From: a virus
Lineage: Duplodnaviria > Caudoviricetes
Direction: 5' to 3' (one strand)
DNA length: 64,000 nt
Virus record (IMG/VR): IMGVR_UViG_3300020438_003185
Coordinates: 322 to 64,321 of that record
Under the pieces are notes generated by a model that saw nothing but the letters and a program-made list of their open reading frames with translations, ran no database searches and was not told the DNA's origin. This document shows, one piece after another, positions 1-16,211 of this stretch. The translations under genes were made by a program, and so were the position numbers. Numbering within the stretch: position 1 is the first letter of the stretch; every line of letters begins with the position of its first letter.

Positions 1-2
1 TC

Positions 3-647
3 AATAAAAACTGGTGGGAAAATACTCAAGCTATTTCTTTAAATGCTTCTGTATTTACATGTCCAACGGCAGTTCCTCCTGCTGGTGGTTATGCTAATAT
101 TGATGGGCCTACTAGAGATGATGATAGTGCTGCTATTAGTATGAATCCTAATAATCTTGGATATACAGACTATGAAACTTTTACAGGGGTTAAGAGCAAG
201 ATATTTCCTGCTGCTAGTGATCCTTATGCAGCGAAGGATCGTAACGAAGGATGTTTAATTAAAGATGCTGTTACTAGAGATGCTCATATTAGAGATGGGT
301 TTTCTAATACTTTTTTAATTATAGAGTGTGCAAGTAGACCTGATGTTTATAAAGCAAGTAATGGTAGATCGGCAACAGGTGATACTAACCAGTGCATTGG
401 TTGGGCTGATAGTGTTGGGCCATTTAAGTTAGATGGTATGGATAGTAATGGAGATAAGTGTAAAAATTGTGCTGGTAATATTCCTTTTAATGTTACTAAT
501 AATGGTGAAGCATACAGTATGCACCCCGGAGTAATGAATACAGTATATGCAGACGGTTCTACTAGAACCGTTAATGATAATGTAGACTTGAGAGTTTTCG
601 CTAGTGCTATTACCCGTGCTGGTGGAGAAGTAGGAACCATTGACTAA
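3..647 (+). CDS. DUF1559-family (prepilin-associated H-X9-DG) protein, 5'-truncated by the window edge
   Basis: Frame is open from nt 3 (NKNWWENTQ...VFTCPT). It contains DGFSNTFLIIE and YSMH-PGVMNTVYA-DG (H-X9-DG) and ends TRAGGE, all typical of DUF1559 C-termini. Confidence 0.88.
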   Translation, partial: NKNWWENTQAISLNASVFTCPTAVPPAGGYANIDGPTRDDDSAAISMNPNNLGYTDYETFTGVKSKIFPAASDPYAAKDRNEGCLIKDAVTRDAHIRDGFSNTFLIIECASRPDVYKASNGRSATGDTNQCIGWADSVGPFKLDGMDSNGDKCKNCAGNIPFNVTNNGEAYSMHPGVMNTVYADGSTRTVNDNVDLRVFASAITRAGGEVGTID

Positions 648-759
648 ACCTCTAAGCAAAGAGTATTTATTGAGCAGAGGTGTTTGTTGTGGTAGTGGAT
701 GCAAAAACTGCCCCTACGTGCCTAAAAACACTAGGGGCAGCAAGGAAGTTAAAAAATGA
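640..759 (+). CDS. Small Cys-rich protein, DUF5522-like (39 aa, not in the ORF track)
   Basis: TTG start overlapping the upstream stop, after purine-rich GGAG/AGGA. Translates MTKPLSKEYLLSRGVCCGSGCKNCPYVPKNTRGSKEVKK, with an RGxCCGxGCxxCPY motif. Confidence 0.8.
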   Translation: MTKPLSKEYLLSRGVCCGSGCKNCPYVPKNTRGSKEVKK

Positions 760-959
760 ATATAATTGGTATATTTGAAATTGCTGCTGGAGTTATTCTG
801 GCTAAACTTGTGATAGGAATATTGAATGAAAGTTATTGGTATAAATGGGAGAGAGTACGCTTGGAATTTAACAAGCTATTCAGTAGACGCAAACGACAAG
901 CGAAAGAGATCAAAGTTCCACGTTCGCGCAAGAAAACTCTTGAAGACTATTTACCATAG
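756..959 (+). CDS. Small hypothetical membrane protein
   Basis: ATGA-coupled to the upstream ORF; N-terminal hydrophobic helix then a basic tail; overlaps the next ORF by 134 nt. Confidence 0.5.
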   Translation: MNIIGIFEIAAGVILAKLVIGILNESYWYKWERVRLEFNKLFSRRKRQAKEIKVPRSRKKTLEDYLP

Positions 960-1251
960 TTATAGAATACTTGAAGAGGTGAAGCTACCGGGAAGCACAC
1001 CATCTCACAGAAAGGGCGTACTGTATTTAGACTTTTATATACCACAGATTATGCTAGCTGTAGAGGTGCATGGTCAGCAACATTATAAGTACACGCCATT
1101 CTTTCACAAAAATAAAGCAGACTTTGCTATTGCAAAAGCTAAGGATGAAGATAAAATAGAATGGTGTGAATTGAACAAGATTGATATAATAGTATTGAAG
1201 CACTCTGATACAGACGAACAATGGAGAGATCAAATTGAAAACGGCGAGTGA
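826..1251 (+). CDS. Vsr/DUF559-like endonuclease
   Basis: LYLDFYIP..LAVEVHGQQHY and D..K..WCELNKI motifs. Confidence 0.75.
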   Translation: MKVIGINGREYAWNLTSYSVDANDKRKRSKFHVRARKLLKTIYHSYRILEEVKLPGSTPSHRKGVLYLDFYIPQIMLAVEVHGQQHYKYTPFFHKNKADFAIAKAKDEDKIEWCELNKIDIIVLKHSDTDEQWRDQIENGE

Positions 1252-1699
1252 GCAGTTAGCCGACTTGAAGGCTATGGTTGACGACTTTTTAAATGCTAGT
1301 AACGCTAGGTTTAACAAGAAGTTTAGGGAGGATTGGCACAGATGCGCTAATGCTAGCAGGGAAACCATTTCGTCTCTTACTAAAGACGAGTTATTCGCTT
1401 GGGCTTATGAACTGTATAGCTTCTCTACACATCTGCAAGATGAATTAAATATGCAGAAAATTGCACTGAACTGGTGCAACGATAAGTTAGATAAAATGGT
1501 AGCAAAAAACCACGATCAATTCAGCACATACACTAAGTTTGAGCAACGTAGACCATTGATCATTGTAAACGATGAATACGCAGCAACAGTAGATCATTAC
1601 CGCGAGATTGCAGAATCAAGAGTACAGGCGCTTGATGGTAAAATATATGAACTAAAACGTAAAGCAGACATTCTAATGGAAAAGGGGAAAAGATCATGA
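1235..1699 (+). CDS. Hypothetical helical protein (possibly a UvsY-like recombination mediator)
   Basis: 154 aa, helical/coiled-coil character, upstream of the helicase. The function is a guess. Confidence 0.6.
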   Translation: MKTASEQLADLKAMVDDFLNASNARFNKKFREDWHRCANASRETISSLTKDELFAWAYELYSFSTHLQDELNMQKIALNWCNDKLDKMVAKNHDQFSTYTKFEQRRPLIIVNDEYAATVDHYREIAESRVQALDGKIYELKRKADILMEKGKRS

Positions 1700-2076
1700 G
1701 TATGGATGAATTTGTACAAACATTATCGGAAGAACAAAAGGCTGCATTAATAAAAGCATTGGGTGGTAACACAGAAGTTGAAACTAGGTGGCAACATGAA
1801 GAACCAGTTTCAGAGGCTGTTGATGGTAATTTTCAAATGAAAAAACCAACGGAACGTCCTCCCAGAAGAAGCACGGTTAGAGCAGGAAAAAACACTTGGG
1901 TAGATGAAGGAGAATTAAAAGATGTCAAGACTCCAGACATTAAACCTACCCCAAGGAATAGAAAAGCTCCTAAAAAAAAGGACGTAACATGCAAGGCGTG
2001 TGGTAAAACATTTAAAATAAATGCAAGCTTAGTATTTGGTGAATTTTATCGTTGCGAAAGATGTATTGGCGGTTAA
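1696..2076 (+). CDS. Hypothetical protein with C-terminal zinc ribbon
   Basis: CKAC...CERC at the C-terminus; ATGA coupling. Confidence 0.7.
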   Translation: MSMDEFVQTLSEEQKAALIKALGGNTEVETRWQHEEPVSEAVDGNFQMKKPTERPPRRSTVRAGKNTWVDEGELKDVKTPDIKPTPRNRKAPKKKDVTCKACGKTFKINASLVFGEFYRCERCIGG

Positions 2077-2079
2077 TAA

Positions 2080-3546
2080 ATGGAAGAAAAACTTTTAGAT
2101 ATAGGTGCAGAACGTGCTGTTCTGGCTGGACTTTTACAAAACGGTGTTGATACATACGTAAACATATCAGATCTACTATGTAGTGAGAGCTTTGTTAATC
2201 CTAATAATAAAATTATTTACAAATGCATAGAACATATTATAAGTAATGATCAAAAGCCAGATGTCGCCACGCTTTTAGCTGCTGCTGAACAGTTGAATTT
2301 CATAGAACAAATAAGTACTAAACAGGAGCTTAACTATATCAACTCTTTATATGAGTTTCCTGTTTCACAGGATAATATATTTAGCTTTGCCGTACAGATG
2401 AAGAAATTTGAGTTTGCACGTAAGATAAAAAACCTTACAGTAAAAGTTCATAAAGACATGGACGATGTTAATGGATCAGAAAGCATTAACGAAATCATAC
2501 AAAAGCTAGAAGATCCAGTAACAGATTTTTTGAGAGAAGACGATGGCGGTGAAAACCCAGAAAAAATAGGAGAAGGTATAGAAGATTATGTCACATTCCT
2601 CGAAGAAAATAAATGCGATATCATTGGTATACCCACGGGATTCTCTAGATATGACCAAGCCATTGGGGGTGGTCTTAGAAGAAAATGCGTTGACCTTGTA
2701 TCTGCAAGACCCAAAGTTGGTAAATCAGTGTTCGCTGATAATGTTGCCCTTAACGTATCTTCCACGGGAGTACCCGTATTAGTATTAGATACCGAGATGT
2801 CTAAAGAAGACCATCTTAATAGACTAATTGCTAACATAAGCGGTGTGCCTATCAACGAAGTCGCCACGGGACAGTTTATTGATGATCCTGTAAAGCACGA
2901 TAAAGTAAAAGAAGCTGTTGCTAAAATAGAATCAATCCCTTACAGCTATATAAGTGTGGCTGGCAAGCCATTTGAAAATATTGTGAATCTTATAAGAAGA
3001 TGGATAGTTCAGGAAGTTAAATCTGACGAGTCGGGTAAAACCAATGATTGTTTAATTATATATGATTATCTGAAGCTTATGTCTTCTTCATCTATAACAA
3101 ACAATATACAAGAGTATCAAGCTTTAGGGTTTCAAATCACTTCTTTGCATAACCTTTGTGTAAAGCTAGACATACCCTGTCTATCCTTTGTTCAATTAAA
3201 TCGTGACGGTATAACAAAAGAAAGCACTGACGCAGTTAGCGGGTCTGATAGACTTGTTTGGCTATGCACATCTTTTAGTATATTCAAATCTAAATCTACA
3301 GAAGAACTTGCTGAAGACGGTCCAAATGCTGGTAATAGAAAATTAGTACCTATTGTTTCTAGACACGGCGCTGGATTAGATGATGGAGATTATATTAATA
3401 TGCAAATGCAGGGCGCACACGCTAAACTTTTAGAACTGAAGACAAGAAATGAATTTAAAAATGCTCCTGTTGGCGACACTGGATTAATTTCAGACATAGA
3501 TAAGATTAAAGATGAACTTAAAGAAACTAAAGAAGACTCTGAATAA
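2080..3546 (+). CDS. dnaB: Replicative DNA helicase, DnaB family
   Basis: AERAVL N-terminus, GIPTGF, Walker A ARPKVGKS, TEMS, IIYDYL, QLNR. Confidence 0.95.
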   Translation: MEEKLLDIGAERAVLAGLLQNGVDTYVNISDLLCSESFVNPNNKIIYKCIEHIISNDQKPDVATLLAAAEQLNFIEQISTKQELNYINSLYEFPVSQDNIFSFAVQMKKFEFARKIKNLTVKVHKDMDDVNGSESINEIIQKLEDPVTDFLREDDGGENPEKIGEGIEDYVTFLEENKCDIIGIPTGFSRYDQAIGGGLRRKCVDLVSARPKVGKSVFADNVALNVSSTGVPVLVLDTEMSKEDHLNRLIANISGVPINEVATGQFIDDPVKHDKVKEAVAKIESIPYSYISVAGKPFENIVNLIRRWIVQEVKSDESGKTNDCLIIYDYLKLMSSSSITNNIQEYQALGFQITSLHNLCVKLDIPCLSFVQLNRDGITKESTDAVSGSDRLVWLCTSFSIFKSKSTEELAEDGPNAGNRKLVPIVSRHGAGLDDGDYINMQMQGAHAKLLELKTRNEFKNAPVGDTGLISDIDKIKDELKETKEDSE

Positions 3547-4534
3547 AAATATTGAAACTGTATTGCAGAAGCTTGGAATAGAATACGAAGCTTTTAGTGA
3601 TAATATATATTCAGTATGCCCATGTCACGAACATAGTGATAACCCAAGAGCTTTTTCTTATTCTATTGATAAAGGAATATGGAAATGTTGGACTAGAGAT
3701 TGTCAAAATGAATTTAACAATGACATATTTGGTTTAATAAAAGGTGCGTTATCGCAAAAAACTGGAACAGACCTTGAGTTTAAAGATGTATTAAAATGGG
3801 TATGTGAAGAATTTAAGATAGACAAAGGTAGTTACGAAGGATCTTCAACCCCTATAGAGCAAGAAGATGATTTTACAAATTTAATTAAATCAATATCTAT
3901 AAAGTCTAATACTAATTTTAATGACAAGGAAATAAATAATCCTTACTCAGTAGAATATCCCTCGGATTATTTCTTATCAAGAGGATTTAAAAAAACTACT
4001 TTAAAATATTTTAACGTGGGAGATTGTCATGATACAGGTATAATGAAAGAAAGGTCTATCATACCTATCCATGATGACTCTGGATATAAGCTAGTGGGAA
4101 TGATTGGTAGAACAATGAAGGCGTATAGAATGCCAAAATTTTTGATATATCCATCTGGCTTTAATAAGCGTCACTATTTTTATAATTATCATAGGGCAAT
4201 AGACAAAATCAAAGAAACTAATTGTTTATATATAGTAGAGGGTCAAGGAGACGTTTGGAAACTTCATGAGGCTGGAGTAAAGAATGCTGTTAGTATTTTT
4301 GGCAAAAGTATTTCCAAAGATCAAGAAAATAAGATAAAGAAATTACCCATAACAAGACTCGTAATACTCATGGACAATGATCAAGCCGGGAGAGAGGCTA
4401 GAGTCCAAATACAAAGACAGTTTGGAAGAATGTATAGGCTTACATTTCCACATTTAAGCGATAAAGATGTTGGAGACATGTCAGTATATAAGATTAAAAA
4501 AGATATTTTAAGCAATTTAAAAGGAACTTATTAA
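3512..4534 (+). CDS. dnaG: DNA primase (zinc finger + Toprim)
   Basis: CPCH...CWTRDC zinc finger; VEGQGD; MDNDQAG; KDVGD. Confidence 0.93.
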   Translation: MNLKKLKKTLNKNIETVLQKLGIEYEAFSDNIYSVCPCHEHSDNPRAFSYSIDKGIWKCWTRDCQNEFNNDIFGLIKGALSQKTGTDLEFKDVLKWVCEEFKIDKGSYEGSSTPIEQEDDFTNLIKSISIKSNTNFNDKEINNPYSVEYPSDYFLSRGFKKTTLKYFNVGDCHDTGIMKERSIIPIHDDSGYKLVGMIGRTMKAYRMPKFLIYPSGFNKRHYFYNYHRAIDKIKETNCLYIVEGQGDVWKLHEAGVKNAVSIFGKSISKDQENKIKKLPITRLVILMDNDQAGREARVQIQRQFGRMYRLTFPHLSDKDVGDMSVYKIKKDILSNLKGTY

Positions 4535-5259
4535 TGAAAATTATAGGTATAGCTGGCAGAAAACAATCTGGTAAAAACACTGTAGCTAATTACATTAACG
4601 GATCTATCTTACAGAGTTTAGATATGATATCTGATTTTGAGATTGGAAATAATGGAGAGCTTGAAATAAAAACTAAAGATAGCTCTGGCACTGATGGGTG
4701 GGGTGTTTTTGATGTGACTAGGAAAGATGAAGAATTTATAAGCTATGCGGAGAACTCTTTGTTTCCTTATGTAAAGGTATACCATTTTGCAGACCCTCTT
4801 AAGTTAATGGCTATAGATTTTTTTGATTTAGAACCACAGCAAGTTTATGGAACTGATAAAGATAAGAACACCTCAACGCCATACACTCAGAATGGTTGGA
4901 AGCATAAGATGACATCTAGAGAATTCTTACAGTACTTTGGCACAGAAGTTATGAGAAAGATAAAAGATACAGTGTGGGTGGACTACACTATAAAAAAGAT
5001 ACAACAAGAACAATCGTCTGTAGCAATCATACCTGACGTTAGATTTCCAAACGAGGTAGATGCAATTAAGAAAGCGGGAGGCGTAGTTATTAGATTAGAC
5101 AGGAATATCTATGACGACCAGCATGTTTGCGAAACCGCTTTAGATAAAGATAAATATGATTGGGATAATTTTGATTATATTATTAACAACAATGACTCTT
5201 CTCTGTCTGATTTATGTAAATCTTTAGGAAAGTTAAAACACTTTTGGAGTAACTTATGA
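4534..5259 (+). CDS. Deoxynucleoside monophosphate kinase (T4 gp1-like)
   Basis: IIGIAGRKQSGKNT, FADPLK, REFLQYFGTE, DVRFPNE, H..E. Confidence 0.9.
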   Translation: MKIIGIAGRKQSGKNTVANYINGSILQSLDMISDFEIGNNGELEIKTKDSSGTDGWGVFDVTRKDEEFISYAENSLFPYVKVYHFADPLKLMAIDFFDLEPQQVYGTDKDKNTSTPYTQNGWKHKMTSREFLQYFGTEVMRKIKDTVWVDYTIKKIQQEQSSVAIIPDVRFPNEVDAIKKAGGVVIRLDRNIYDDQHVCETALDKDKYDWDNFDYIINNNDSSLSDLCKSLGKLKHFWSNL

Positions 5260-6293
5260 TAATAACTTATGTCAGATCTTCTAGTTATAATAATTACTCC
5301 TATTGTGAGATGCAATATTTTATGACATATGTACTGGGCCACCAATCTAAAAGTGGCAAAAAGGCAGACATGGGTACAATGGTTCATAAAGTCATGGAAG
5401 TTTTAGCTGGATTAAAAAAGTATGAGCAAGACAAACCTAAAGTTAAATTCTTAAAAGTCGATGACGATGCTATTGGTAAGTTTAAATGTAGAAAAGAAGA
5501 ACTGCATACCGAGGAGTTAGTAAATCAATTAATTACTCTTAGTATAGATTCTTATGAAAAAAACTCTCCTCACAGCTTTAACGGTAAAGACAGAGGAGAA
5601 ATAGCTACAACGGCATGGTGCTTCCTAAAGCATAGCGACGGTCAATTCGACCCAAGGCTTAGAGACATACACTTTCCAGAGCCTCATTTTGATATACCGA
5701 TTGAAGAAGATTGGGCTAAGTTTGAGTATGAGATAGATGGAAAAATGATTCAAGGACAATTAGCAATCAAAGGCACGATAGACCTTGTTACCAAAATTAA
5801 TGATGACACAATCGAGGTAATTGATTGGAAAACTGGAAGAAGAATGGATTGGGCTACGGGAGAAGTAAAAGATTATAAAAAATTAGAAAATGACCCACAG
5901 TTATTGCTATATTATTATGCTATTTCTAAATTATATCCAGAGTTTCCTAACAGGATTATGAGTATATTCTTCTACAAGAACAAAGATGGAGATCCTGACC
6001 CATCACCCTTTAGTCTATGCTTTTCTCCAGAAGACGAAGAAAGGTTTTTAGAAATGTTAAAAAATAGGGTTGCAGAAATAAGGCAAAATATTACCCCTAA
6101 ACCACTAGATCCTAACAGAAAACACTGGAAATGTAAGAATTTGTGTCATTTTTGCAAGACTAAATGGGGTGATACAGACGACAATATGTGTATTTATATA
6201 GAGAAGCACTTAAAAGAACATGGAATGGACAAAACTATTGCAGATTGCAGTAGAGAAGGGTTTGACATAGGATATTATGAGGCTCCCGGCTAA
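5256..6293 (+). CDS. PD-(D/E)XK exonuclease, Cas4/RecB/AddB-like
   Basis: N-terminal YSYC, GTMVH, GTIDLV, IDWKTG, QLLLY and a C-terminal Cys cluster CKNLCHFC...C. Confidence 0.88.
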   Translation: MIITYVRSSSYNNYSYCEMQYFMTYVLGHQSKSGKKADMGTMVHKVMEVLAGLKKYEQDKPKVKFLKVDDDAIGKFKCRKEELHTEELVNQLITLSIDSYEKNSPHSFNGKDRGEIATTAWCFLKHSDGQFDPRLRDIHFPEPHFDIPIEEDWAKFEYEIDGKMIQGQLAIKGTIDLVTKINDDTIEVIDWKTGRRMDWATGEVKDYKKLENDPQLLLYYYAISKLYPEFPNRIMSIFFYKNKDGDPDPSPFSLCFSPEDEERFLEMLKNRVAEIRQNITPKPLDPNRKHWKCKNLCHFCKTKWGDTDDNMCIYIEKHLKEHGMDKTIADCSREGFDIGYYEAPG

Positions 6294-7147
6294 TGAAAAA
6301 AACTTTATCAATAGGAATGTGTACTCACGATGATATACATGGAGTGTATTTTTCTTTACAGGCTCTTAGATTATATCATCCAATAGTACAAACAGACGCT
6401 GTAGAATTAATAGTAGTAGATAATAATCCAGAATCTGTACATGGACAGGCTCTACAAAAATGGATTAAAGGCTGGTGTCAGGCAAAGGTTAAATACATAC
6501 CTTATACAGAAAAAAAATCTACATCATCAAGAAATCTAATATTTGAGAACGCAGAAGGAAAATACTGCATAAGCATGGATTGCCATGTAATGTTTCCTAC
6601 AGGATCTTTGGAATATCTTTTAGCCTATTATAAAGATAAACCAAACTGCAAAGATTTAGTTCAAGGACCATTAATGTATGATAATATACATGGATATTCC
6701 ACACATTTTAAACCAATGTGGGGAGGCGATATGTATGGTCAATGGGGAAAAAATACAGAGGAATGTGAAAAGGGTGTTCCTTTTGACATACCAATGCAAG
6801 GACTAGGAGTTTTTTCTTGTGAAACTAAAAACTGGCTAGGGTTCAACCCTCTTTTTAAAGGTTTTGGTGGAGAAGAAGGATACATACACGAAAAATTTAG
6901 GCAACATGGAGGAAGAGCAGTTTGTATACCTCAATTCAAATGGTTGCACAGATTTTTGAGACCAGACGGCGTTACCTATCCGTTGGTTTTAGAGGATAGA
7001 GTTTGGAATTATTTTGTTGGATGGTTAGAATTAAAAAAAGATCCTAGCCATCCAATGATTAAAGAAATATATGATAATTTTAGCAAGCGTATGAAAAAAG
7101 AAAAAATAGACGAGATATTGAGACTAGCAATTCAAACTATTACATAA
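6293..7147 (+). CDS. Glycosyltransferase family 2 (GT-A)
   Basis: LIVVDNN, SRN, MDCH (DxD-like), FKGFGGEE. Confidence 0.85.
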   Translation: MKKTLSIGMCTHDDIHGVYFSLQALRLYHPIVQTDAVELIVVDNNPESVHGQALQKWIKGWCQAKVKYIPYTEKKSTSSRNLIFENAEGKYCISMDCHVMFPTGSLEYLLAYYKDKPNCKDLVQGPLMYDNIHGYSTHFKPMWGGDMYGQWGKNTEECEKGVPFDIPMQGLGVFSCETKNWLGFNPLFKGFGGEEGYIHEKFRQHGGRAVCIPQFKWLHRFLRPDGVTYPLVLEDRVWNYFVGWLELKKDPSHPMIKEIYDNFSKRMKKEKIDEILRLAIQTIT

Positions 7148-7163
7148 ATAACAGGAGTGTAAA

Positions 7164-7757
7164 ATGTCAGATATAAATGAAGTTGATATTCAATATACAA
7201 CAGACACATATGGTTTTACTGAAGAGCTGACAGAAGAAAACTTCTATCTTCCAGCAGAAGCAGAATATGAGGATTTTGGCGAAGCTGAAGAAGAGCATGA
7301 CGCTGCTTCCTTGTGGGAAAATATTCGTAAGAAGAAGGAGCGCGAAGGCAAAAACTATAAACCCGCCAAGAAGGGTGATAAAGACAGGCCAGATCCAGAA
7401 GCTTGGAAAAAGGCACAGTCAGAACCTTCTGAAAAACAAAAGAAATCGCTTGATAAAAACAAAGATGGTAAAGTTACCAAAGAAGATTTTGAATTGCTAC
7501 GTAAGGGTAAAGGCGCTGAATACCAAGGTAAAAAAGTTAAACTTGGAAAGCCGTTTCTAACCCCGGACGGTCCTAAGAAAAGAAGCGTCTACGTAAAAAA
7601 TGGTTCTGGCAATGTTGTTAAAGTAAATTTTGGCGACCCCAACATGTCTATCAAAAAGGATAATCCAGCAAGAAGAAAGTCTTTTCGTGCTAGACACAAT
7701 TGCGAGAATCCGGGTCCAAAGTGGAAGGCTAGATACTGGTCATGCAAAGCTTGGTAA
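7164..7757 (+). CDS. Conserved phage hypothetical protein with an EF-hand-like loop
   Basis: AGGAG RBS; acidic N-terminus; DKNKDGKVTKED loop; C-terminal VNFGDPNM..RRKSFRARHNC..ARYWSC domain that I recall from aquatic phages. Confidence 0.75.
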   Translation: MSDINEVDIQYTTDTYGFTEELTEENFYLPAEAEYEDFGEAEEEHDAASLWENIRKKKEREGKNYKPAKKGDKDRPDPEAWKKAQSEPSEKQKKSLDKNKDGKVTKEDFELLRKGKGAEYQGKKVKLGKPFLTPDGPKKRSVYVKNGSGNVVKVNFGDPNMSIKKDNPARRKSFRARHNCENPGPKWKARYWSCKAW

Positions 7758-7969
7758 AAAAGTGGAAAGATCATCTAGGCCACAACAACATGACTTACTG
7801 GCAACATTTAAAGTTTGCCGTAGGTCATGGTGTATGTTGTATCAAGGCCGGTGTATATTTATGTATACATGGTTTACTACCATGTTTTAGACGCAGGGCT
7901 GGTGAAAGATTAGTTCATAGGCTAGATAAAGACTTCACAGAGCATAAGAAAAATGTCAATAATAAGTAA
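7742..7969 (+). CDS. DUF6356-like small protein
   Basis: HL....TY.QH..FA ... IHG..P.F pattern. Confidence 0.65.
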   Translation: MQSLVKKWKDHLGHNNMTYWQHLKFAVGHGVCCIKAGVYLCIHGLLPCFRRRAGERLVHRLDKDFTEHKKNVNNK

Positions 7970-8648
7970 CATAGACAAACTGATTAAATCAGAGCCAAAC
8001 ATAGATGATGTTGGTTATCTAAAAAACAAGATGACATATCAAGATGATATTAATAATAATATTGTTAAGATAGATTGGTTGAAAATTCTTGATGCTCCCC
8101 CTAAAAATAGTAATCCAAAGACTACTAGAGAACTACACGCTATTAGTAAGGCTACTGTGAACAGAACTTCCAAAGAAGTAGATTTAGTCATAAGGGTAGA
8201 CAGAGATCCAGTGGCTTTATTTGTTGATTTTTTGGAAAAGAAAAATTTGAAATTCCCAAAGAGTAAATTTTATACATTTTATGATTTCCTTGAGCCTTAT
8301 ATATATGGATTGAAATATCACTTTAATAGGGCTAGGCCAGAACAACTTGCCCACTATCATAATATAAACTTAAAAATTCTTTATACAGACAGTCATCACA
8401 CGCCGTCTTATCCTAGCGGTCACGCTATGTACGCTGAACTGGCAGCTAATATATTATCTGACGAATATCCAGAATACAAATCTAATTTTTTTGAAATAGC
8501 AAAATTTTGTGGATTGGCTAGAGTTCTACAGGGAGTACACTTTCCATCAGATAACGAAGCTAGCGTTAAAGCGGTTAGTGTATTATATCCTTTAATAAAG
8601 AAAGGTATAGAAAATGTCAAAACCAGTAAAGAGTTTCCCTTTAAGTAA
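7953..8648 (+). CDS. PAP2-superfamily phosphatase
   Basis: Three PAP2 motifs: KYHFNRARP, PSYPSGH, RVLQGVHFPSD. Confidence 0.9.
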   Translation: MSIISNIDKLIKSEPNIDDVGYLKNKMTYQDDINNNIVKIDWLKILDAPPKNSNPKTTRELHAISKATVNRTSKEVDLVIRVDRDPVALFVDFLEKKNLKFPKSKFYTFYDFLEPYIYGLKYHFNRARPEQLAHYHNINLKILYTDSHHTPSYPSGHAMYAELAANILSDEYPEYKSNFFEIAKFCGLARVLQGVHFPSDNEASVKAVSVLYPLIKKGIENVKTSKEFPFK

Positions 8649-8712
8649 TGTTCCTTCACCAAAAGAGCCAGTAAAAAGACCATTACCACCATTGCAAAAA
8701 CCTAAAAATTAA
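8614..8712 (+). CDS. Possible small Pro/Lys-rich peptide (32 aa)
   Basis: MSKPVKSFPLSNVPSPKEPVKRPLPPLQKPKN; AAAGG upstream; fills the gap before the dnaE promoter. Confidence 0.35.
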   Translation: MSKPVKSFPLSNVPSPKEPVKRPLPPLQKPKN

Positions 8713-8714
8713 CT

Positions 8715-8762
8715 TTGTGAAATATTGAACAGGATGGTACAATCCTATAGGATAGATTGTAC
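8715..8762 (+). promoter_or_regulatory. Sigma70-like promoter of dnaE with overlapping inverted repeat
   Basis: TTGTGA(8715)-N17-TACAAT(8738) with extended -10 TG; inverted repeat GTACAATC-N10-GATTGTAC at 8737-8762; AGGAG RBS follows. Confidence 0.6.
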
Positions 8763-8783
8763 ATTGACTTAGGAGATAGCTAA

Positions 8784-10349
8784 TTGAATTGGTTTCCATT
8801 GAAGAACTTTACGCATTATAGTTTATTAAAAGGCTTTTCCAAGCCACATGAATTAGCGAAGATGTGTGCTGATAAAGACTACCCAGCTTGTGGTATTACA
8901 GATTACAAGTCTATATCTGGAGCGGTGTCTTTTCATCAAGCCTGTAAAAAAGTTGGAATCAAACCTATCATTGGCTGTTCATTTGATAGCACAACTGTAT
9001 ATGCCAAAAACAAAGATGGTTGGCACGATCTAATTCAGATGGTATCTATGACAGACGAAAATGGTAATATGCCTAAAGACATAGCCAAGGATATAATTAG
9101 TAGAAATAACTTGGTTGCATTACAGAAGTCGAAAGATAATATCAAGCCTGCGTATTACGTAAAGAAAGAGCAGTCTGTTTTACATAGGGTATTATTATGC
9201 TCTGCCCTAAAAACTACTTTGCCTAAAATCAATACTAAAATTAGAAACAATAAGTTAGAGCCAGAAATTTTAGAATATTTTCAGAAAGATGACAAGTGTG
9301 TGATAGAAGGTAAAGTTACTAAAGAATTAGAGTATATATATAATTCGTGTGAAGAGTACGACATACTTAACCCTCCTATGCTTCCAAACTTTGTATGTCC
9401 CAACGGAATGTCTCAAGAAGATTATTTAACACATATGGCAAGAACTGGTTATACAGAATTACTTAAGCCAAAAGTAGGAAAAGATAAAGACAAGCAGAAA
9501 ATATACGGAGACAGGTTTCACAAAGAATTAGAAGTTATTAGAAATGCAGATCTATTTGGATACTTTTTAATTGTACAGGATATAATTAGACACATAGAAA
9601 AGGATATGGGATGTTTAGCTGGTCCGGGCAGAGGTTCTGCTGCTGGATGTTTAATATCATATCTAGTAGGTATTACCAAGATAGATCCAGTAGAACACGA
9701 TTTATTGTTTGAAAGATTTTATAATGCAGGACGCAATACTGGAGGTAATGTTTCTCTGCCAGATATAGACATGGATGTTCCGGGCAAGAGACGGGATGAT
9801 GTTATAGATTATTTAAAAGACACATATGGACATGAGCATGTCAGTCAAATGATTACATTTGGAAGACTACAGGGGCGTAGCGCAATAAAAGAAGTTCTTA
9901 GAATAAATGAGGCTTGTTCTTTTAGTGAGATGAATGCTATAACAAAGAGTATACCTAACGAGGCAGACGTTTCCGATCAGCTTGCAGAAATGGACGATGA
10001 AGACAGGTCTATCATAAGATGGTCTTTGATTAATAGGGCAGATGATTTAAGAGATTTCTGCTATATAACAGATGATGGAAAACTTGAAGGTGATTATGCA
10101 GAATATTTTCAGCAAGCTATTGACATGGAGGGTACATTTAAGACTCAAGGTAAACATGCTGCTGGCGTAGTCATATCTAAAGACAAGTTAAAAGATGTCT
10201 GCCCCATGATACAACAGAAAGGTTCTACAGAAAAAATAGCAGGATTAGAAATGTCTGATCTAGAAGCACTAGGTCATGTAAAATTTGACGTTCTAGGAAT
10301 TAATCTTCTAGATAAACTTATGAAAATAAAGGAACTAAAAAATGGCTAA
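8784..10349 (+). CDS. dnaE: DNA polymerase III alpha, N-terminal part (reduced PHP, palm, thumb)
   Basis: THYSLLKG, IKPIIG, GPGRGSAAG, LLFERF, PDIDMD, HAAGVVI, KFDVLG; TTG start with AGGAG. Confidence 0.93.
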   Translation: MNWFPLKNFTHYSLLKGFSKPHELAKMCADKDYPACGITDYKSISGAVSFHQACKKVGIKPIIGCSFDSTTVYAKNKDGWHDLIQMVSMTDENGNMPKDIAKDIISRNNLVALQKSKDNIKPAYYVKKEQSVLHRVLLCSALKTTLPKINTKIRNNKLEPEILEYFQKDDKCVIEGKVTKELEYIYNSCEEYDILNPPMLPNFVCPNGMSQEDYLTHMARTGYTELLKPKVGKDKDKQKIYGDRFHKELEVIRNADLFGYFLIVQDIIRHIEKDMGCLAGPGRGSAAGCLISYLVGITKIDPVEHDLLFERFYNAGRNTGGNVSLPDIDMDVPGKRRDDVIDYLKDTYGHEHVSQMITFGRLQGRSAIKEVLRINEACSFSEMNAITKSIPNEADVSDQLAEMDDEDRSIIRWSLINRADDLRDFCYITDDGKLEGDYAEYFQQAIDMEGTFKTQGKHAAGVVISKDKLKDVCPMIQQKGSTEKIAGLEMSDLEALGHVKFDVLGINLLDKLMKIKELKNG

Positions 10350-11022
10350 TAGAGACTATATTGTATTTGACTTTGAAACTGGGAGTAGAAATCCTAATAA
10401 AACCCAACCTACACAAATTGCAGCAATTGCGCTAGACGGTCGTAACCTAGCTATGAAGGGGTCTTTCAACAGCGAGATTAAACCTATACTAGATGACGAC
10501 AAAGCTATAGCCGCTGGACTAGATCCAATTGAAGATGGAGCTTTAAAAGTAACTGGTAAAAATAGAAAAGACTTAGCCAAAGCTCCAGCTCTAAAATCTG
10601 TATGGAAAAAGTTTTGTTCTTTTGTAGATCAATATAATTGGAAAAAAGATCCATTCTTTAATCCTATACCAGTAGGGTTTAACATCATTGGTTTTGACAT
10701 GATTATTATTAATCGTTTGTGTAAAGAATATGGACCTTTTGACGATGGTAGGCAACAGCAAAAGATCTTTAGTAAGATTCATAAATGTGATGTCATGGAC
10801 AATATGCACATGTGGACAGAGGGTGATCCTAGCATTAGATCAATTAGTATGGACACTCTACGTGAACGTATGGGATTGTCTACAGAAAATGCACATGATG
10901 CGCTGCAAGATGTTAAGGATACAGCTAATATATTCATAAAGCTATTGAAGACTCATAGAGCAGTATATCAAAACATTGAACTGGACAAGGCGTTTGCAAA
11001 CGGAAATTTGTATGTCAAATGA
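10342..11022 (+). CDS. DEDDh 3'-5' exonuclease (DnaQ/epsilon-like)
   Basis: ExoI VFDFETG, ExoII GFNIIGFD, ExoIII HDALQD. Confidence 0.9.
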   Translation: MANRDYIVFDFETGSRNPNKTQPTQIAAIALDGRNLAMKGSFNSEIKPILDDDKAIAAGLDPIEDGALKVTGKNRKDLAKAPALKSVWKKFCSFVDQYNWKKDPFFNPIPVGFNIIGFDMIIINRLCKEYGPFDDGRQQQKIFSKIHKCDVMDNMHMWTEGDPSIRSISMDTLRERMGLSTENAHDALQDVKDTANIFIKLLKTHRAVYQNIELDKAFANGNLYVK

Positions 11023-12577
11023 ATATGACGATAAAGAAACTTGGAAGCTATTTGAAGAAGGTAAAACCAAGGGTGTCTTCCAGCTAGAAAGCAACCTTGG
11101 TAAGTCTTGGTCAAAAAAACTTTCTCCTCATAATATTGAAGAGTTGTCTGCACTCATCGCTATTATTAGACCGGGATGCTTAAAAGCTTTGGTAGATGGT
11201 AAATCTATGACCCAGCACTTTATTGACAGAAAGCACGGAAGAGAAGAGGTTACATACCTGCATGAATCTTTAGAAGAGATTTTACTGCCCACATACGGAG
11301 TACTCGTATACCAAGAACAGTCTATGCGTATTGCACAAAAGGTGGCAGGATTTAACCTACAGGAAGCAGATGAGCTACGTAAAGCAATTGGCAAGAAAAA
11401 AGCGGACTTGATGGCTAAGGTTAAGACTAATTTTATCAAAGGTGTTAAAAAGGTAGGAATGGTTGATAAAGAAACAGGAGAAGAAATATTTAGTTGGATT
11501 GAAAAATCTTCTAGATATGCATTTAATAAGTCACATAGTATATCATATGCTGTATGTTCTTATTGGAGCGCTTACCAAAAGGCTCATAATACTAAAGAAT
11601 TTTTCTTATCTTATCTATATTATGCTAACGAAAAACAAGATCCCCACCAAGAAATATACGAATTAATTTCTGAAGCCAAGCTATTCGATATAGAACCAAG
11701 AACACCAAGCGTTGCAAACTTTGACGTAAAGTTTAATATAAAGAAAAACAAGGTGTACTTTGGTATTAAAGATATCAAATCTCTCACTGGTAAAACAGGG
11801 GACAAAGTGATAGATGCTATATCAGAAGCGGAAACTGAACTAAAGAAAAAGATAAATAAGTTTAATTGGATTGAAATATTATTATTTTTCGCACCAAAGA
11901 TGAGTTCTACCGCCTTCAAAGCTTTAGCATCTATAGGATTCTTTAGAGATTTTAACGGTAAGGTTTCTAGGAATAAAGCAATATATGATTATGATATATA
12001 TAGGACGCTGACTAAGGCAGAGCAAAGCTGGATACAAAAAAAATATGAATCTAAAAAGTGGACAGACTTTATTGACTGCCTAAAAGATCTCTCGCCTACA
12101 AAAAAGAATGGCGGCGGTACAAGCAGGGTAGAAAGGCAGCAAATTGTTGAAAATGAAATACAACTCTTGGCAAACCCACCGTATGATTTAAATGATGATC
12201 CATCTTGGATTATAGATCAAGAGACTAGGTATTTGGGATGTCCTATAACAATGTCCAAGATAGATACAGCTGATAAGTCCTCTGCCAATACTACATGTAA
12301 AGATATAGTCAATGGCAAGAACGGTAAAGGCATATGCGTGGTAGCAAATATACAACGCATGGCAGATTACACAATCAAAAAGGGCGACTCAAAGGGACAG
12401 GCCATGTCTTTTCTGACAATAGAAGATGACACATGTGTGCTAGACAGTGTGGTTATATTCCCCAAGGTTAAGCAAAAATACAAGTATGTATTATACGAAG
12501 GAAATAATCTTATGTTTTGCGGATCTGTAGGTAAAAAAGACTCTTCTTTGATTGTAGATAAAGTTCATGAAATTTAA
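11012..12577 (+). CDS. dnaE: DNA polymerase III alpha, C-terminal part (fingers, HhH, OB)
   Basis: GVFQLES, IRPG, TYGVLVYQEQ, ADELRKAIGKK, YAFNKSH, OB fold with MSFLTIEDDT. Start placed at ATG 11012 (MSNEYDD); the track uses TTG 10976. Confidence 0.93.
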   Translation: MSNEYDDKETWKLFEEGKTKGVFQLESNLGKSWSKKLSPHNIEELSALIAIIRPGCLKALVDGKSMTQHFIDRKHGREEVTYLHESLEEILLPTYGVLVYQEQSMRIAQKVAGFNLQEADELRKAIGKKKADLMAKVKTNFIKGVKKVGMVDKETGEEIFSWIEKSSRYAFNKSHSISYAVCSYWSAYQKAHNTKEFFLSYLYYANEKQDPHQEIYELISEAKLFDIEPRTPSVANFDVKFNIKKNKVYFGIKDIKSLTGKTGDKVIDAISEAETELKKKINKFNWIEILLFFAPKMSSTAFKALASIGFFRDFNGKVSRNKAIYDYDIYRTLTKAEQSWIQKKYESKKWTDFIDCLKDLSPTKKNGGGTSRVERQQIVENEIQLLANPPYDLNDDPSWIIDQETRYLGCPITMSKIDTADKSSANTTCKDIVNGKNGKGICVVANIQRMADYTIKKGDSKGQAMSFLTIEDDTCVLDSVVIFPKVKQKYKYVLYEGNNLMFCGSVGKKDSSLIVDKVHEI

Positions 12578-12581
12578 GTTG

Positions 12582-12610
12582 TTGTTTATAGTTGTACAAG
12601 CTAATATACT
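12582..12610 (+). promoter_or_regulatory. Sigma70-like promoter upstream of ssb and the glycosylation genes
   Basis: TTGTTT-N17-TATACT in the intergenic gap, TTGTACAA palindrome in the spacer, AGGAG RBS downstream. Confidence 0.45.
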
Positions 12611-12625
12611 AAGATAGGAGAAAAT

Positions 12626-12931
12626 ATGAATAATTGTTGTTTTACAGGATACTTTACAGAAAACCCACAGACCTCTGTGGTAGACAATGTAGTATTAGCA
12701 GAGTTCGTTATAGTTACTTATAGCTATAGAAAAACAAAAAGTACTGGGGAAAAAAGTAAAATGCCAACGTACTTACACTGTGAAGCATGGCACACGGGTG
12801 CAGAAACGCTAGAAAGATTTGCTACAAAAGGCACGAAGATAACATTTAATGCTACTGCTAAAAATATATCAAGAGACGACGAGAGTATAGTATTTAGAAT
12901 AAACGAATTCGATTTGTGCATGGAGGAATAG
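12626..12931 (+). CDS. ssb: Single-stranded DNA-binding protein (short OB fold)
   Basis: MNNCCFTG....P N-terminus, YLHCEAW..AE.....KG; no long acidic tail. Confidence 0.8.
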   Translation: MNNCCFTGYFTENPQTSVVDNVVLAEFVIVTYSYRKTKSTGEKSKMPTYLHCEAWHTGAETLERFATKGTKITFNATAKNISRDDESIVFRINEFDLCMEE

Positions 12932-12932
12932 G

Positions 12933-14588
12933 ATGAGAAAAAAAAGAATATTGTTTTGTAGTGAAGCAACTTTTTTAAATACAGGTTACGCCACGTATAC
13001 AAGAGAAATACTAAACTATTTAAGTAGCACAAACAAGTATGAAATAGCAGAACTGGCAGCTTATGGTCAACCAGATGACCCTAGAATATCAACAATACCT
13101 TGGAAATTTTATCCAGCAGCACTGCCAAAAAATTCTAGTCAGGAGCAACAACGAGCATTTGCTTCTAAAGCTACAAATCAATTTGGAGAATATGTATTTG
13201 AAAGCGTTTGCTTAGACTTTATGCCAGATATAGTTTGTGACATTAGAGATTTCTGGATGATGGATTTTATTGATAGATCTCCCTATAGAAAATTCTTTAA
13301 TTGGTGCATCATGCCAACCGTTGACGCAGAGCCTCAAGCTAGGCAGTGGATAGCTACTTATGAAACAGCGGATGCTTGTCTTAGTTATTCTAATTGGTCT
13401 GGAGATTTACTTCAGAAACAGTCTGGTAACAAAATTAATTACATCGGCTCTGCTCCTCCCTCTGCACATCCAGCGTATCGACCTGCTGATAATATTGATG
13501 AAATTAAAAATAGCATTGGCATAGATAAAAATTGGAAGATTGTTGGAACGGTTATGAGAAATCAACGTAGAAAATTATATCCAGATTTGTTTGAAGCATT
13601 TAAATTACTTTTAGAAAAAACTAAAGATCCTGACCTTAAATTATATTGTCACACCAGTTATCCAGACATGGGTTGGGATGTACCTGAATTGTTACAACAA
13701 TATAAGTTGTCTTCTAAAGTATTATTTACATACGTCTGCACTGAAACCAACATGCCCTTTGCTTCTTTGTTTAAGGGGGCAAAAGCAGAATCTCCATACA
13801 CTAAAAAACTTACAGGAGTTATGGCAAATGTAAAACAAGGTTTAACTTACGAGCAGTTGTCTGATATAATTAATACTTTTGATGTATACGTTCAATATGC
13901 AAACTCAGAGGGGTTTGGTCTGCCACAGGTAGAAGCTGCTGCCTGTGCAGTTCCAGTGATGAGCGTGGATTATTCTGCAATGTCAAGCGTTATAAGACAA
14001 CTGGGAGGCACTCCACTTCCTGTCAAAACGTTCTATAAAGAATTAGAAACTGGATGTCTTAGAGCAGTTCCAGACAATGATGCTACAGCAAGTTTGCTTC
14101 AAGAATTTTTTAAGATACCTAAAACAATGAGAAATAAAAAAGGTTTTGAATGTAGAAATAATTTTTTAAAACATTTTCAGTGGGATAAAAGTGGCGCTGA
14201 ATGGGAAAAATATTTTGATAGCGTAGAGTTAAGGGATGTGTCAGAAACTTGGAAGTCTCCACCCGACATACAGCAATCAGCACCTAAACCCGATAAGACT
14301 CCTGAAGTATCTTATCAAGAGATAGCATATTTTTTAATAAATCAAGTGTTAAAACTACCAGAAAAATGCAATGAATATATGTTTTCTAGAACAATAAGAG
14401 ATCTCATGTATGGTAATGTTACAAATATGACAGGGGGTATGTATATGAACGAGTGCGCTACAGCGTTTGAAAACACGCCTCATAGATATCCTTTTAATTT
14501 TGATATAGCTTATCAAAAGATGAAAGACATAAGAGACAATATAAATCAATGGGAACAACGTAGAATGGAGGTTATGAGTAACAGATGA
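12933..14588 (+). CDS. Glycosyltransferase family 4 (GT-B)
   Basis: TGYA, VMRNQRRK, EGFGLPQVEAAAC (EX7E), FQWD. Confidence 0.9.
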   Translation: MRKKRILFCSEATFLNTGYATYTREILNYLSSTNKYEIAELAAYGQPDDPRISTIPWKFYPAALPKNSSQEQQRAFASKATNQFGEYVFESVCLDFMPDIVCDIRDFWMMDFIDRSPYRKFFNWCIMPTVDAEPQARQWIATYETADACLSYSNWSGDLLQKQSGNKINYIGSAPPSAHPAYRPADNIDEIKNSIGIDKNWKIVGTVMRNQRRKLYPDLFEAFKLLLEKTKDPDLKLYCHTSYPDMGWDVPELLQQYKLSSKVLFTYVCTETNMPFASLFKGAKAESPYTKKLTGVMANVKQGLTYEQLSDIINTFDVYVQYANSEGFGLPQVEAAACAVPVMSVDYSAMSSVIRQLGGTPLPVKTFYKELETGCLRAVPDNDATASLLQEFFKIPKTMRNKKGFECRNNFLKHFQWDKSGAEWEKYFDSVELRDVSETWKSPPDIQQSAPKPDKTPEVSYQEIAYFLINQVLKLPEKCNEYMFSRTIRDLMYGNVTNMTGGMYMNECATAFENTPHRYPFNFDIAYQKMKDIRDNINQWEQRRMEVMSNR

Positions 14589-15694
14589 AAATTCTTTATA
14601 TAGCTCATTTTAGTGAAAATTCTAACTGGTCGGTATCTGCAATTCACAAAGTTCTTGCTTTGGTAAATAACGGTTTTGAAGTAGTGTGTAGAAACGCAAG
14701 ATTAAATGATGTATCACAAGTAGAATTGCCACCTCAAATACAAGATTGCTTAAAAAAAGATTTAAATAATATTGATGTGTGCATACAGCATGTGTTACCA
14801 ACAATGATAGTAGGAAGCAAAAAATTCAAGAAAAATATTGCATGTGTACATTTAGACACAGAGATTAACCAAGATCACTGTTGGATACACAACCTAAGCA
14901 TGGTCGATGAAGTGTGGGTTAACAACAAGGATAGCCTATCCAATCTGTTAGACCTGAATATAAATGCTAAGTATATTCCTAATTGTTTCCACATTGATAC
15001 TTATAAAAATCAATATAAACTCCTAGACTTTGGAGATATGAATAATAAGTTTAAATTTTATACAGTGTCTTCCGTAGGCGAAAAAAACAATTTAAATTCT
15101 GTTATTAGGTCATATTTTAGCACTTTTGATGTATCGGATAACGTATGTTTTATTTTTAACATCTATGACCATTCTAATAATGAGGACTCAATTAAAAATT
15201 ATTTTTCAGACTACATAAAGAAAAATAAAGAAATTATGAGAATTGGTAACGATGCTTATTTTCCTCCAGTGTTTCTTATTACGAGACCTTTGAATCCTAT
15301 GGAATTACAGAGTTTGCACACGACTTGTGATTGTTACGTAGAGTTAAGTAAGAGTGTTGATTTCTCTACTCCAGCTTTCGAGGCGATGTGTTATGGAAAA
15401 ACTCCTGTATGTAGCAATAATGGTAGCTACAAAGATTACATATCAGAAGATAAAAACTCTGGAACACTAATAAACGGTGTTAAGAATATATGTTTTGATC
15501 ATAGTCCTCCTTCTCCGCATTTGTTTACTGGAAAAGAATTATGGTTTTCATCAGACGAGAAAGAATCTAAACAAGCAATGGCTTGGTATTATGAAAATAG
15601 TAAGTCTATAGACAGGAACGTTGGAATACAAAACGCACAGAACTTTGACTACAAAGTAGTCGCTGAAAAGATGAAGGAAAGCTTTAATGAATAA
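14585..15694 (+). CDS. GT-B/GT4-like glycosyltransferase (divergent)
   Basis: MKILYI, DEVWV, CDCYV.LSKSVDFSTPAFEAMCYGKTPV; the first Glu of EX7E is not conserved. Confidence 0.78.
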   Translation: MKILYIAHFSENSNWSVSAIHKVLALVNNGFEVVCRNARLNDVSQVELPPQIQDCLKKDLNNIDVCIQHVLPTMIVGSKKFKKNIACVHLDTEINQDHCWIHNLSMVDEVWVNNKDSLSNLLDLNINAKYIPNCFHIDTYKNQYKLLDFGDMNNKFKFYTVSSVGEKNNLNSVIRSYFSTFDVSDNVCFIFNIYDHSNNEDSIKNYFSDYIKKNKEIMRIGNDAYFPPVFLITRPLNPMELQSLHTTCDCYVELSKSVDFSTPAFEAMCYGKTPVCSNNGSYKDYISEDKNSGTLINGVKNICFDHSPPSPHLFTGKELWFSSDEKESKQAMAWYYENSKSIDRNVGIQNAQNFDYKVVAEKMKESFNE

Positions 15695-16211
15695 AATAAA
15701 AAGTTGGATCGAAAAAAGCAACAGAAAAAAAAGCAAGTGCAACTGTATAATTTTTACAACAAACGAAGACTATGAAGTTAAGCTTGCTAAAACTGGACAT
15801 AATTTCTACGCCTTTAGTTCAGAAGAGTTGAAATCTTGGGACGATGAAGAACACAAAAGGCCAGATAACTATTTTGTATTGCCAAAAAACGAGATACCTA
15901 TATGGTTAAATTTTGATGTTATTATAGTTCAACACAAGATAGGTCAATATAGTAAGGGTAAGCAAATATCAGACTTGTTAAAGATACCCATGATTGTTGT
16001 AGAACATTCAATGCCTAGAGTGATTAGCAAAATGGAGCAACAGATAGACCAGCTAAAATCTATGCGAGGACATTTAAATATATTTACTAGCTCAGAATCC
16101 GCAGATGCTTGGGGGATAGAAGATAGCTATGTAATTAACAGCGATCCCGAAGAAGACTTTATCACACAATGGACAGTATTATTGGAACAATTTTATGAAA
16201 GGTTAACATGA
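15687..16211 (+). CDS. GT-B N-terminal-domain-like protein (apparently lacking the C-domain)
   Basis: FDVIIVQH, IPMIVVEH, NIFTS...W, followed directly by a terminal F..QW helix. Confidence 0.55.
   Translation: MNKIKSWIEKSNRKKSKCNCIIFTTNEDYEVKLAKTGHNFYAFSSEELKSWDDEEHKRPDNYFVLPKNEIPIWLNFDVIIVQHKIGQYSKGKQISDLLKIPMIVVEHSMPRVISKMEQQIDQLKSMRGHLNIFTSSESADAWGIEDSYVINSDPEEDFITQWTVLLEQFYERLT

Follow-up and report, generated by a model that had tools for sequence, protein, structure and literature searches.

A DUF1559-type pilin-like gene in large marine phages and its likely origin in one family of planctomycetes

Introduction

Proteins of the DUF1559 family (DUF1559/SBP_bac_10; PF07596, TIGR04294) are among the largest unexplained paralogue families in planctomycetes. 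For R. baltica, the accessible text of one report gives 74 DUF1559 genes and describes them as a large paralogous expansion of unknown function (PMC2754498), while for P. limnophila the accessible text of another gives 68, two of them essential (PMC10632474). None of the papers mentioning DUF1559 in the literature searched concerns phages. Here we describe a DUF1559 gene at the start of a 64,000-nucleotide stretch of phage DNA (hereafter the window; bases 322-64321 of the 64,321-base virus record IMGVR_UViG_3300020438_003185, CheckV completeness about 40%), together with its relatives in other phages and in cells. The phage protein has the same domain set as the planctomycete proteins (an N_methyl leader, the DUF1559 domain and the H-X9-DG end) and reaches 65% identity with members of one single-copy orthologue group. 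It differs from the cellular family in that a phage genome holds one or two copies instead of dozens (25 matches in the planctomycete genome G001), in its phage codon composition, and in its separation from a phytase-like partner.

Virus-encoded pilins are themselves already known. SNJ2, an archaeal provirus (a haloarchaeal pleolipovirus), encodes the pilins PilA1 and PilA2, which hijack the host machinery, and the accessible text of the same paper cites a prophage-encoded FimU in Pseudomonas aeruginosa as a virus-encoded pilin (PMC12426801). As in those two cases, a host-derived pilin-type subunit is encoded here by viral genomes devoid of assembly machinery, which would have to be that of the host: prepilin peptidase (PF01478) was found in 0 of 5 phage records (that of the window and four complete relatives) and in 5 of 5 candidate host genomes. 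SNJ2 and the FimU prophage, in contrast, are temperate elements with canonical pilins and demonstrated filaments, whereas here the carriers are apparently lytic and the subunit is a DUF1559-type protein of about 320 amino acids (aa) whose assembly is only predicted. What is new is that the pilin-like subunit is of the DUF1559 type and that its carriers are marine phages of apparently lytic habit, which extends virus-encoded pilin-type subunits beyond temperate archaeal and Pseudomonas elements.

Two other groups of described systems are close enough to be useful for comparison. With the pilins and pseudopilins GspG, PilA and PilE the phage protein shares a predicted class III leader, F+1, E+5, a hydrophobic α1 helix and, in the model, a 52-residue helix plus β-sheet; unlike them, it has a globular part that is about twice as large, is without a PDB sequence match there and gives only weak structural matches (Z ≤ 4.5). 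Host-derived auxiliary genes of marine phages are exemplified by pstS and phoH of cyanophages. The DUF1559 gene resembles these in being host-derived, under purifying selection, of phage-like composition and placed beside nucleotide-metabolism genes, while its link to phosphorus, unlike theirs, comes only from the phytase-like neighbor of the cellular orthologue.

A DUF1559 gene with a prepilin-type N-terminus

The window opens inside the gene and holds its 3′ two-thirds (Table 1). In the 321 record bases 5′ of the window the open reading frame (ORF) continues to record position 3, and the full gene occupies positions 3-968 of the record (L001). A first-pass annotation made from the window had recognized the gene by three motifs and had pointed upstream for a prepilin site. 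The three motifs, FTCP, DGxSNT and H-X9-DG (522-557), all lie where they had been placed, on columns that are invariant or nearly invariant in a 41-sequence family alignment. Upstream, the 321 bases encode a predicted prepilin-type leader, then FTLIELLVVIAIIG, plus a predicted transmembrane helix, so that the site is present, though with Ala instead of Gly at position -1; F+1 and E+5 are kept. About eight leader codons are absent at the 5′ end of the record, taking as yardstick L007, which has the same leader with a start codon.

Both profiles named for the family exceed their cut-offs on the window part as well as on the full-length protein: PF07596 scores 57.2 bits (E = 3.6e-15) and 133.4 bits, respectively (cut-off 23.3), and TIGR04294 scores 27.1 and 26.4 bits (cut-off 19). 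The full-length protein also matches PF07963 (31.8 bits, cut-off 21.2) and TIGR02532 (27.2 bits, cut-off 16.3). Because all of these Pfam and TIGR scores are above their cut-offs, the DUF1559 identity is not a matter of chance.

In the 29 phage copies with a readable N-terminus, position -1 is Gly in 20 and Ala in nine (the window copy and eight other loci). Two cellular orthologues also have Ala, which rules it out as a phage-specific trait, and prepilin peptidases partly tolerate Ala at this position. The Ala copies, taken with the lack of a prepilin peptidase in the phages, bring up the idea of a dominant-negative effect, in which an overproduced phage prepilin would saturate the peptidase or the assembly platform and so shut down host pili or type II-like secretion. 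We regard such jamming as improbable, given that Gly is found in most of the readable phage copies, that Ala is a natural variant of the cellular protein, and that the globular domain is under strong purifying selection (see below), which would be needless for a mere plug.

An AlphaFold2 model built on 41 sequences (predicted local distance difference test [pLDDT] score 88, predicted template modeling [pTM] score 0.83) consists of a helix at residues 11-62, a loop-rich middle and five strands. The H-X9-DG motif forms the last hairpin, with the motif His preceding strand 284-289 and the DG making the turn before strand 294-298. PDB sequence matches span profile positions 7-72 only and fall on the α1 helix of type IV pilins, the Geobacter pilin and PulG. 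A wide structural search gave 23 chains with Z ≥ 2, of which 19 were type IV pilins or pseudopilins, with a top Z of just 4.5, and a Foldseek search against the PDB returned no match at E ≤ 1e-3. The GspG equivalog TIGR01710 scored 33.3 bits against a cut-off of 88.85, with only the N-terminal 80 residues aligned. By the model and the leader prediction together, the protein appears to keep the type IV pilin/pseudopilin-like features (short basic leader, F+1, E+5, N-terminal helix and β-sheet domain), apart from the variation at position -1. It is a DUF1559-kind pilin-like subunit outside every characterized pilin family.

Distribution among marine phages

The first-pass annotation took the gene to be phage-borne, noted its orientation and coupling with phage genes, and named two circumstances that would speak otherwise, a host chromosome flanking a prophage and a chimeric assembly. 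The location of the gene at the very 5′ end of the record, cut by the contig end, is what such a reading would draw on. A scan of viral contigs, however, found a copy 71-93% identical in 36 others. Many of these copies are internal, within 90-195 kb phage genomes and with 8 kb of phage genes on either side, and five T4-like genomes of 157-195 kb are 100% complete by CheckV. The GC content is 37-44% for the gene and 31-42% for the phages; at third codon positions the phage copies have a GC fraction (GC3) of about 0.2, whereas GC3 is 0.32-0.45 in their closest cellular orthologues and 0.6-0.9 in those further removed. In the window the gene overlaps downstream phage ORFs in a chain (DUF1559, DUF5522, next ORF), and every gene from DUF1559 to about 22 kb, including those for DnaB, primase, deoxynucleoside monophosphate (dNMP) kinase, exonuclease and DNA polymerase, lies on the + strand. 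The cellular orthologues have other neighbors (phytase-like protein, D-lactate dehydrogenase, sulfatase). Because of the 36 loci, the internal positions and the phage-like composition, a host flank or chimera is excluded for practical purposes and is barely credible as an explanation of the window copy. The DUF1559 gene, cellular in origin, truly belongs to the phages.

Its carriers form a broad group of uncultured marine phages with large genomes (about 155-195 kb) of low GC content. DnaB is at most 29% identical to its counterparts in cultured phages, and the phage DUF1559 protein has no match in 50,697 GenBank phage records. They look lytic from their gene content, with rIIA/rIIB and a clamp loader in the T4-like relatives; no integrase was noticed in the general annotation of the window.

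By ORF comparison the 36 viral loci were sorted into 13 of window type, 20 T4-like and three other or cut (L007, L016 and L021). In the window-type order, DUF1559 is followed by a DUF5522 mini-ORF (usually), a 141-aa homing-endonuclease-like ORF, two small ORFs, DnaB and primase. A UvsX/RecA-like recombinase gene stands directly 5′ of DUF1559 in 7 of the 7 window-type loci that extend upstream, and in L010, where the upstream stretch was annotated, genes for a class II ribonucleotide reductase, dUTPase and PhoH are found 3-6 kb upstream. In the T4-like loci (n = 20) a rIIA homologue lies 1.3-2.7 kb 3′ of DUF1559. In the annotated T4-like locus L003 the gene is flanked by nucleotide-sugar epimerases, with a family 2 glycosyltransferase (GT2), a sulfotransferase, thioredoxin and a CAP-domain gene on the upstream side and rIIB and the clamp loader further downstream.

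The two arrangements have in common the gene order DnaB, primase, dNMP kinase, exonuclease. DUF1559 genes are 73-91% identical between them, against 45-49% for DnaB and 44-53% for the first 520 residues of the tape-measure-like protein, and nucleotide similarity between the arrangements is limited to the DUF1559 ORF (80-87% over about 950-1130 nucleotides [nt]). On a quick gene tree the arrangement label needs three changes. Because homology starts and stops at the ORF while the backbones are divergent, we conclude that the gene moves as a cassette of about 1 kb among divergent phages. A second, different DUF1559 paralogue (Table 1) is present in four viral loci (82-100% identical), inserted between dNMP kinase and exonuclease in the complete 171-kb T4-like genome G305. 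Its best matches in the G001 family of planctomycetes, the only family searched, are 40-48% identical and occur in 10 of 151 genomes at E ≤ 1e-50. Since this second paralogue is present, these phages have captured DUF1559 genes at least twice.

The ratio of nonsynonymous to synonymous substitution rates (dN/dS) has a median of 0.146 (range 0.01-0.32) over 372 phage-phage pairs and is 0.20 for cellular pairs. Compared with the nine nearest cellular rows, the phage copies have 159 conserved identical columns and 10 fixed differences; they are without a phage-specific insertion, and only a few C-terminal residues are missing. The substitution pattern indicates that the phage DUF1559 copies are kept under purifying selection.

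Origin in a family of planctomycetes

A pattern scan covering one genome per prokaryotic species returned two close cellular matches (L038, 63%; L039, 54%) and many distant ones. L038 belongs to G001, a metagenome-assembled genome (MAG) titled 'uncultured Planctomycetaceae bacterium', where the gene lies among sulfatase, DUF72 and phytase-like genes. The 64 distant matches, which are either full length at about 28-35% identity or confined to the N-terminal part, are nearly all from Planctomycetota, with some from Lentisphaerota and a few from other groups, and the nearest Atlas clusters are commonest in Planctomycetota. The DUF1559-type matches in the G001 genome are headed by one at 65% identity, with the next at 36%. 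Of 151 genomes sampled from the G001 family, 23 have a strong match (E ≤ 1e-60, 41-65% identity), and each of these has only one. In an even sample across the phylum, scored at five candidates per genome so that weaker orthologues may be missed, one of 401 genomes reached E ≤ 1e-60, namely G001 itself, and none of the 400 others did. The link to planctomycetes proposed in the first-pass annotation is thus borne out at a finer level, that of a single-copy orthologue group specific to one family.

The only close match labeled as something other than a planctomycete is from the MAG G002, assigned to Rubritalea. It would point to a different host, either another bacterium of the Planctomycetota-Verrucomicrobiota-Chlamydiota (PVC) group such as Rubritalea (Verrucomicrobiota) or a host adopted after the gene had been picked up, and this second-best genome match (54-57% identity) is joined by the lack of an independent host link from tRNA or from spacers in window 1-20000. 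In the Rubritalea family, however, only this original MAG, one of 151 genomes, matches at E ≤ 1e-20. Its orthologue lies on two short contigs (L114 and L115), one of which matches, at 99.5% identity over its full 1660 bp and with identical proteins, a contig from the G001-family genome G004, while the other is collinear with the same planctomycete-family locus at 76-80% identity. The Rubritalea-labeled contigs are probably mis-binned planctomycete DNA. A prepilin that the host must process is moreover unlikely to be kept under purifying selection where the host lacks the system, and the best cellular matches of the second paralogue, in the one family searched, also come from the G001 family. 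Taken together, these findings make a host other than a planctomycete very improbable.

Phylogenetic analysis used 47 rows, comprising 23 distinct phage sequences, 21 cellular orthologues and three distant G001 paralogues as outgroup. Five exact phage duplicates (L020, L022, L027, L029, L036), L114 (identical to L107), the partial rows L021 and L125, and loci without a readable N-terminus (L014, L028, L030, L031, L033, L034, L035, L037, L117, L128) were omitted. In a careful IQ-TREE run (LG+C20+F+G4 by posterior mean site frequency [PMSF]), the 23 phage rows formed one clade (support 100/99), which was present in every one of 200 bootstrap trees; its sister group was made up of seven cellular rows (99/96). 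These two clades together joined G001 and G077 (100/100), with the other cellular orthologues outside. The nested pattern would mean a single capture of this gene from a member of the G001 family. Under an approximately unbiased (AU) test, the alternative of a single clade for all 21 cellular rows was not rejected (p = 0.065, delta log-likelihood 15.3), and the nesting therefore rests on branch support only. Nested or not, the phage gene by these comparisons belongs to the family-specific orthologue group, among whose members its clade sits.

The seven-member cellular sister clade (L106-L111, L115) is on a long branch (0.48) and, unlike both the phage copies and the cellular orthologues that are more distant, has lost the cysteines at the ECAS, NQC and DKCKNC positions.

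Planctomycetes of the G001 family are thus supported as the donor lineage and, from the same comparisons, are the most likely host. The earlier proposal of a planctomycete host stands as far as the donor is concerned, by way of the orthologue group; an independent link to the present host, by CRISPR (clustered regularly interspaced short palindromic repeat) spacer matching window 1-20000 or by tRNA, was not found (there is no tRNA in the window). The gene ties at least 36 viral contigs, five of them complete genomes of 157-195 kb, to one marine planctomycete family, and can serve as a host marker. Hardly any phages of Planctomycetota have been described: phrase searches of the literature for planctomycete phages found none, and a broader search brought up a chronic phage reported from a deep-sea planctomycete (PMC10945688). 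In the accessible text of a 2025 review of the phylum, 'phage' occurs once, in connection with plasmids carrying phage genes, and 'virus' does not occur (PMC12673574). Metagenomic host predictions involving planctomycetes do exist, according to the accessible part of another report (PMC6802176).

Possible function during infection

In 18 cellular loci the orthologue is followed by a gene for an exported PF13449 'phytase-like esterase' of about 471 aa; the gap is 28 nt in L038 (pair at L038:2155-4641), and the pair also occurs in L106-L113 and others. Members of the sister clade have a D-lactate dehydrogenase gene 5′ of the orthologue. We propose that the phage gene would be expressed with the early/middle DNA-metabolism genes; that the protein is made during infection is suggested by the position of the window-type gene in a DNA-metabolism block, overlapping the next ORF. 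The preprotein would enter the host inner membrane and be cleaved by the host prepilin peptidase, as the phages lack such an enzyme. The phage subunit would then replace or supplement the host orthologue in an assembly of pilus or pseudopilus type, akin to type II secretion. The payoff would be an envelope export or uptake function that is maintained or boosted in infection, possibly the scavenging of organophosphate; it is tied to envelope function because the cellular orthologue is followed by the exported phytase-like esterase. The logic would be that of an auxiliary host-function gene, not of an inhibitor. For the whole statement, substitution or supplementation together with planctomycete origin and host, we would put the probability at roughly 0.55. 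Substitution or supplementation taken by itself is a tentative proposal, at a little short of even odds.

The first-pass annotation had suggested that the phage copy may alter the host surface or pilus-like structures, for example for superinfection exclusion. By such a mechanism the phage subunit, built into or capping host type IV-type filaments, would remodel the receptor and block adsorption of other phages that use those fibers, or of the same phage. Prophage FimU in Pseudomonas and the SNJ2 pilins, which replace host pilins, are precedents for it (PMC12426801). The features needed for assembly (F+1, E+5 and a long α1 helix) are all kept, phage lineages that occur together swap the cassette and some have acquired a second paralogue, as is typical of accessory genes of competition, and in L003 the gene stands amid surface-glycan genes (epimerases, glycosyltransferase, sulfotransferase). 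A changed receptor surface, however, would be expected to diverge more than 159 shared conserved columns against 10 fixed differences and a dN/dS of about 0.15 allow. Exclusion or receptor remodeling is in our view unlikely, but has to be reckoned with. Substitution for a host function is somewhat more favored than surface alteration by the conservative phage sequence and the conserved enzyme partner.

A more specific version of the substitution proposal can be considered. DUF1559 proteins could be cargo-specific pseudopilins of a planctomycete envelope uptake/export apparatus, with the phage copy re-arming organophosphate acquisition; the apparatus may be the fibers linked to crateriform structures, and the captured subunit may pair with the exported phytase-like phosphoesterase. 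We consider this version distinctly unlikely as it stands. If true, it would make the phage copy a new class of auxiliary gene for pilus-type nutrient acquisition, swapped among co-infecting large phages, and would open a first way into the function of a family that numbers dozens of paralogues in each planctomycete genome. A predicted complex of the globular part of the phage DUF1559 protein with the host phytase-like protein scored 0.00 against a mark of 0.32, which is evidence neither way. Promoter-like sites around the gene in L010 (10, against 7.0 ± 2.9 expected) were uninformative.

Several results weigh against substitution by a planctomycete-derived subunit in a planctomycete host. With Ala at -1 in the window copy and eight other phage loci, cleavage is not assured, and the structural likeness to pilins is weak, both by Z score and by Foldseek. 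The PF13449 partner was found in 0 of 5 phage records. Surface remodeling fits the setting of the L003 gene at least as well. Four marine RNA libraries, from four studies, contain short contigs that match the gene (90% alike or better), but the runs were chosen by this stretch and DNA carry-over is possible, so that they attest presence in the libraries, not transcription. As to origin, there are the AU test and the small number of candidates scored per genome in the phylum-wide sample. As to host, a donor lineage alone is not proof of the present host, and the phages have a GC content clearly lower than the 45-49% of the nearest cellular loci. The proposed search for CRISPR spacers also gave no link: comparison of window 1-20000 with all 176 genomes of the G001 family returned the orthologue itself and only two short matches (29 nt at 93% and 33 nt at 88%), around which there were no CRISPR-like repeats and which were treated as chance.

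Whichever of these functions applies, the phage gene offers an entry point to DUF1559 function: a phage orthologue under strong purifying selection and a cellular orthologue with a phytase-like partner single out a tractable pair.

Neighboring genes in the window

Coordinates of the features discussed are collected in Table 1.

Table 1. Features of the DUF1559 gene, its surroundings in the window, and the second phage paralogue. Positions are those of the window unless a locus or genome is named; conservation was read from the 41-sequence family alignment.
Feature	Position	Strand	Details
3′ part of DUF1559 / H-X9-DG prepilin-type gene	3..647	+	214 codons + stop; 5′-open ORF
FTCP motif	54-65	+	C127 invariant, P128 nearly invariant
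DGFSNT motif (DGxSNT)	294-311	+	D205, G206 invariant; S208, T210 nearly invariant
H-X9-DG motif	522-557	+	H, PGVMNTVYA, DG; H281, D291 invariant; G292 invariant or nearly so
DUF5522 ORF, 39 codons, Cys-rich	640-759	+	PF17653 37.5 bits (cut-off 25), E = 2.5e-9
Homing-endonuclease-like ORF, 141 aa	826..1251	+	phrog_9084 E = 1.2e-12; phrog_559
Replication module (DnaB helicase, primase, dNMP kinase, exonuclease)	2080..6293	+	Same order in 13 related viral loci
DNA polymerase (phrog_405), two pieces	8784-10349 and 10976-12577	+	
Giant ORF, 4523 aa	32672-46243	-	FG-GAP repeat
Tape-measure-like protein, 2636 aa	46249-54159	-	
Second DUF1559 paralogue, 357 aa	L132:4724-5797 = G305:C1 ~90.7-91.8 kb	-	Ala at -1

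The DUF5522 ORF starts within the last DUF1559 codons, and its stop overlaps the ATG of the following ORF. It is present in L001 and in 11 of the 13 window-type loci; it was not found in L006, L014, L031, the T4-like and other viral loci, or the cellular loci. Being confined to window-type loci, it was ruled out as a part of the mobile cassette.

The homing-endonuclease-like ORF is 91-99% identical across window-type loci, where its neighbors vary more (identities of 51-94% between copies of the two small ORFs and 75-95% between the DnaB genes). This ORF may be a mobile element next to the DUF1559 cassette. It shares 134 nt with a 67-codon ORF (756-959), and because of this overlap one of the two calls is doubtful.

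The remaining content of the window is that of a phage and includes the two-piece DNA polymerase, a single-stranded DNA-binding protein, glycosyltransferases, the tape-measure-like protein and the 4523-aa protein. Between the two DNA polymerase pieces, and overlapping both, is a 226-aa ORF (10342-11022) with an exonuclease-subunit annotation. In five T4-like genomes there was no match for the C-terminal 583 aa of the tape-measure-like protein or for a 567-aa structural protein of the window, results that are uninformative by themselves. Five complete relatives have giant ORFs (2143-4561 aa) whose starts are 44-53% identical to residues 1-520 of the tape-measure-like protein. Two regions of the + strand, 6293-8648 and 12933-19693, hold envelope and glycan genes, among them GT2, a PAP2 phosphatase, DUF6356, two GT1 genes, DUF5672 and an RgpF-like gene.

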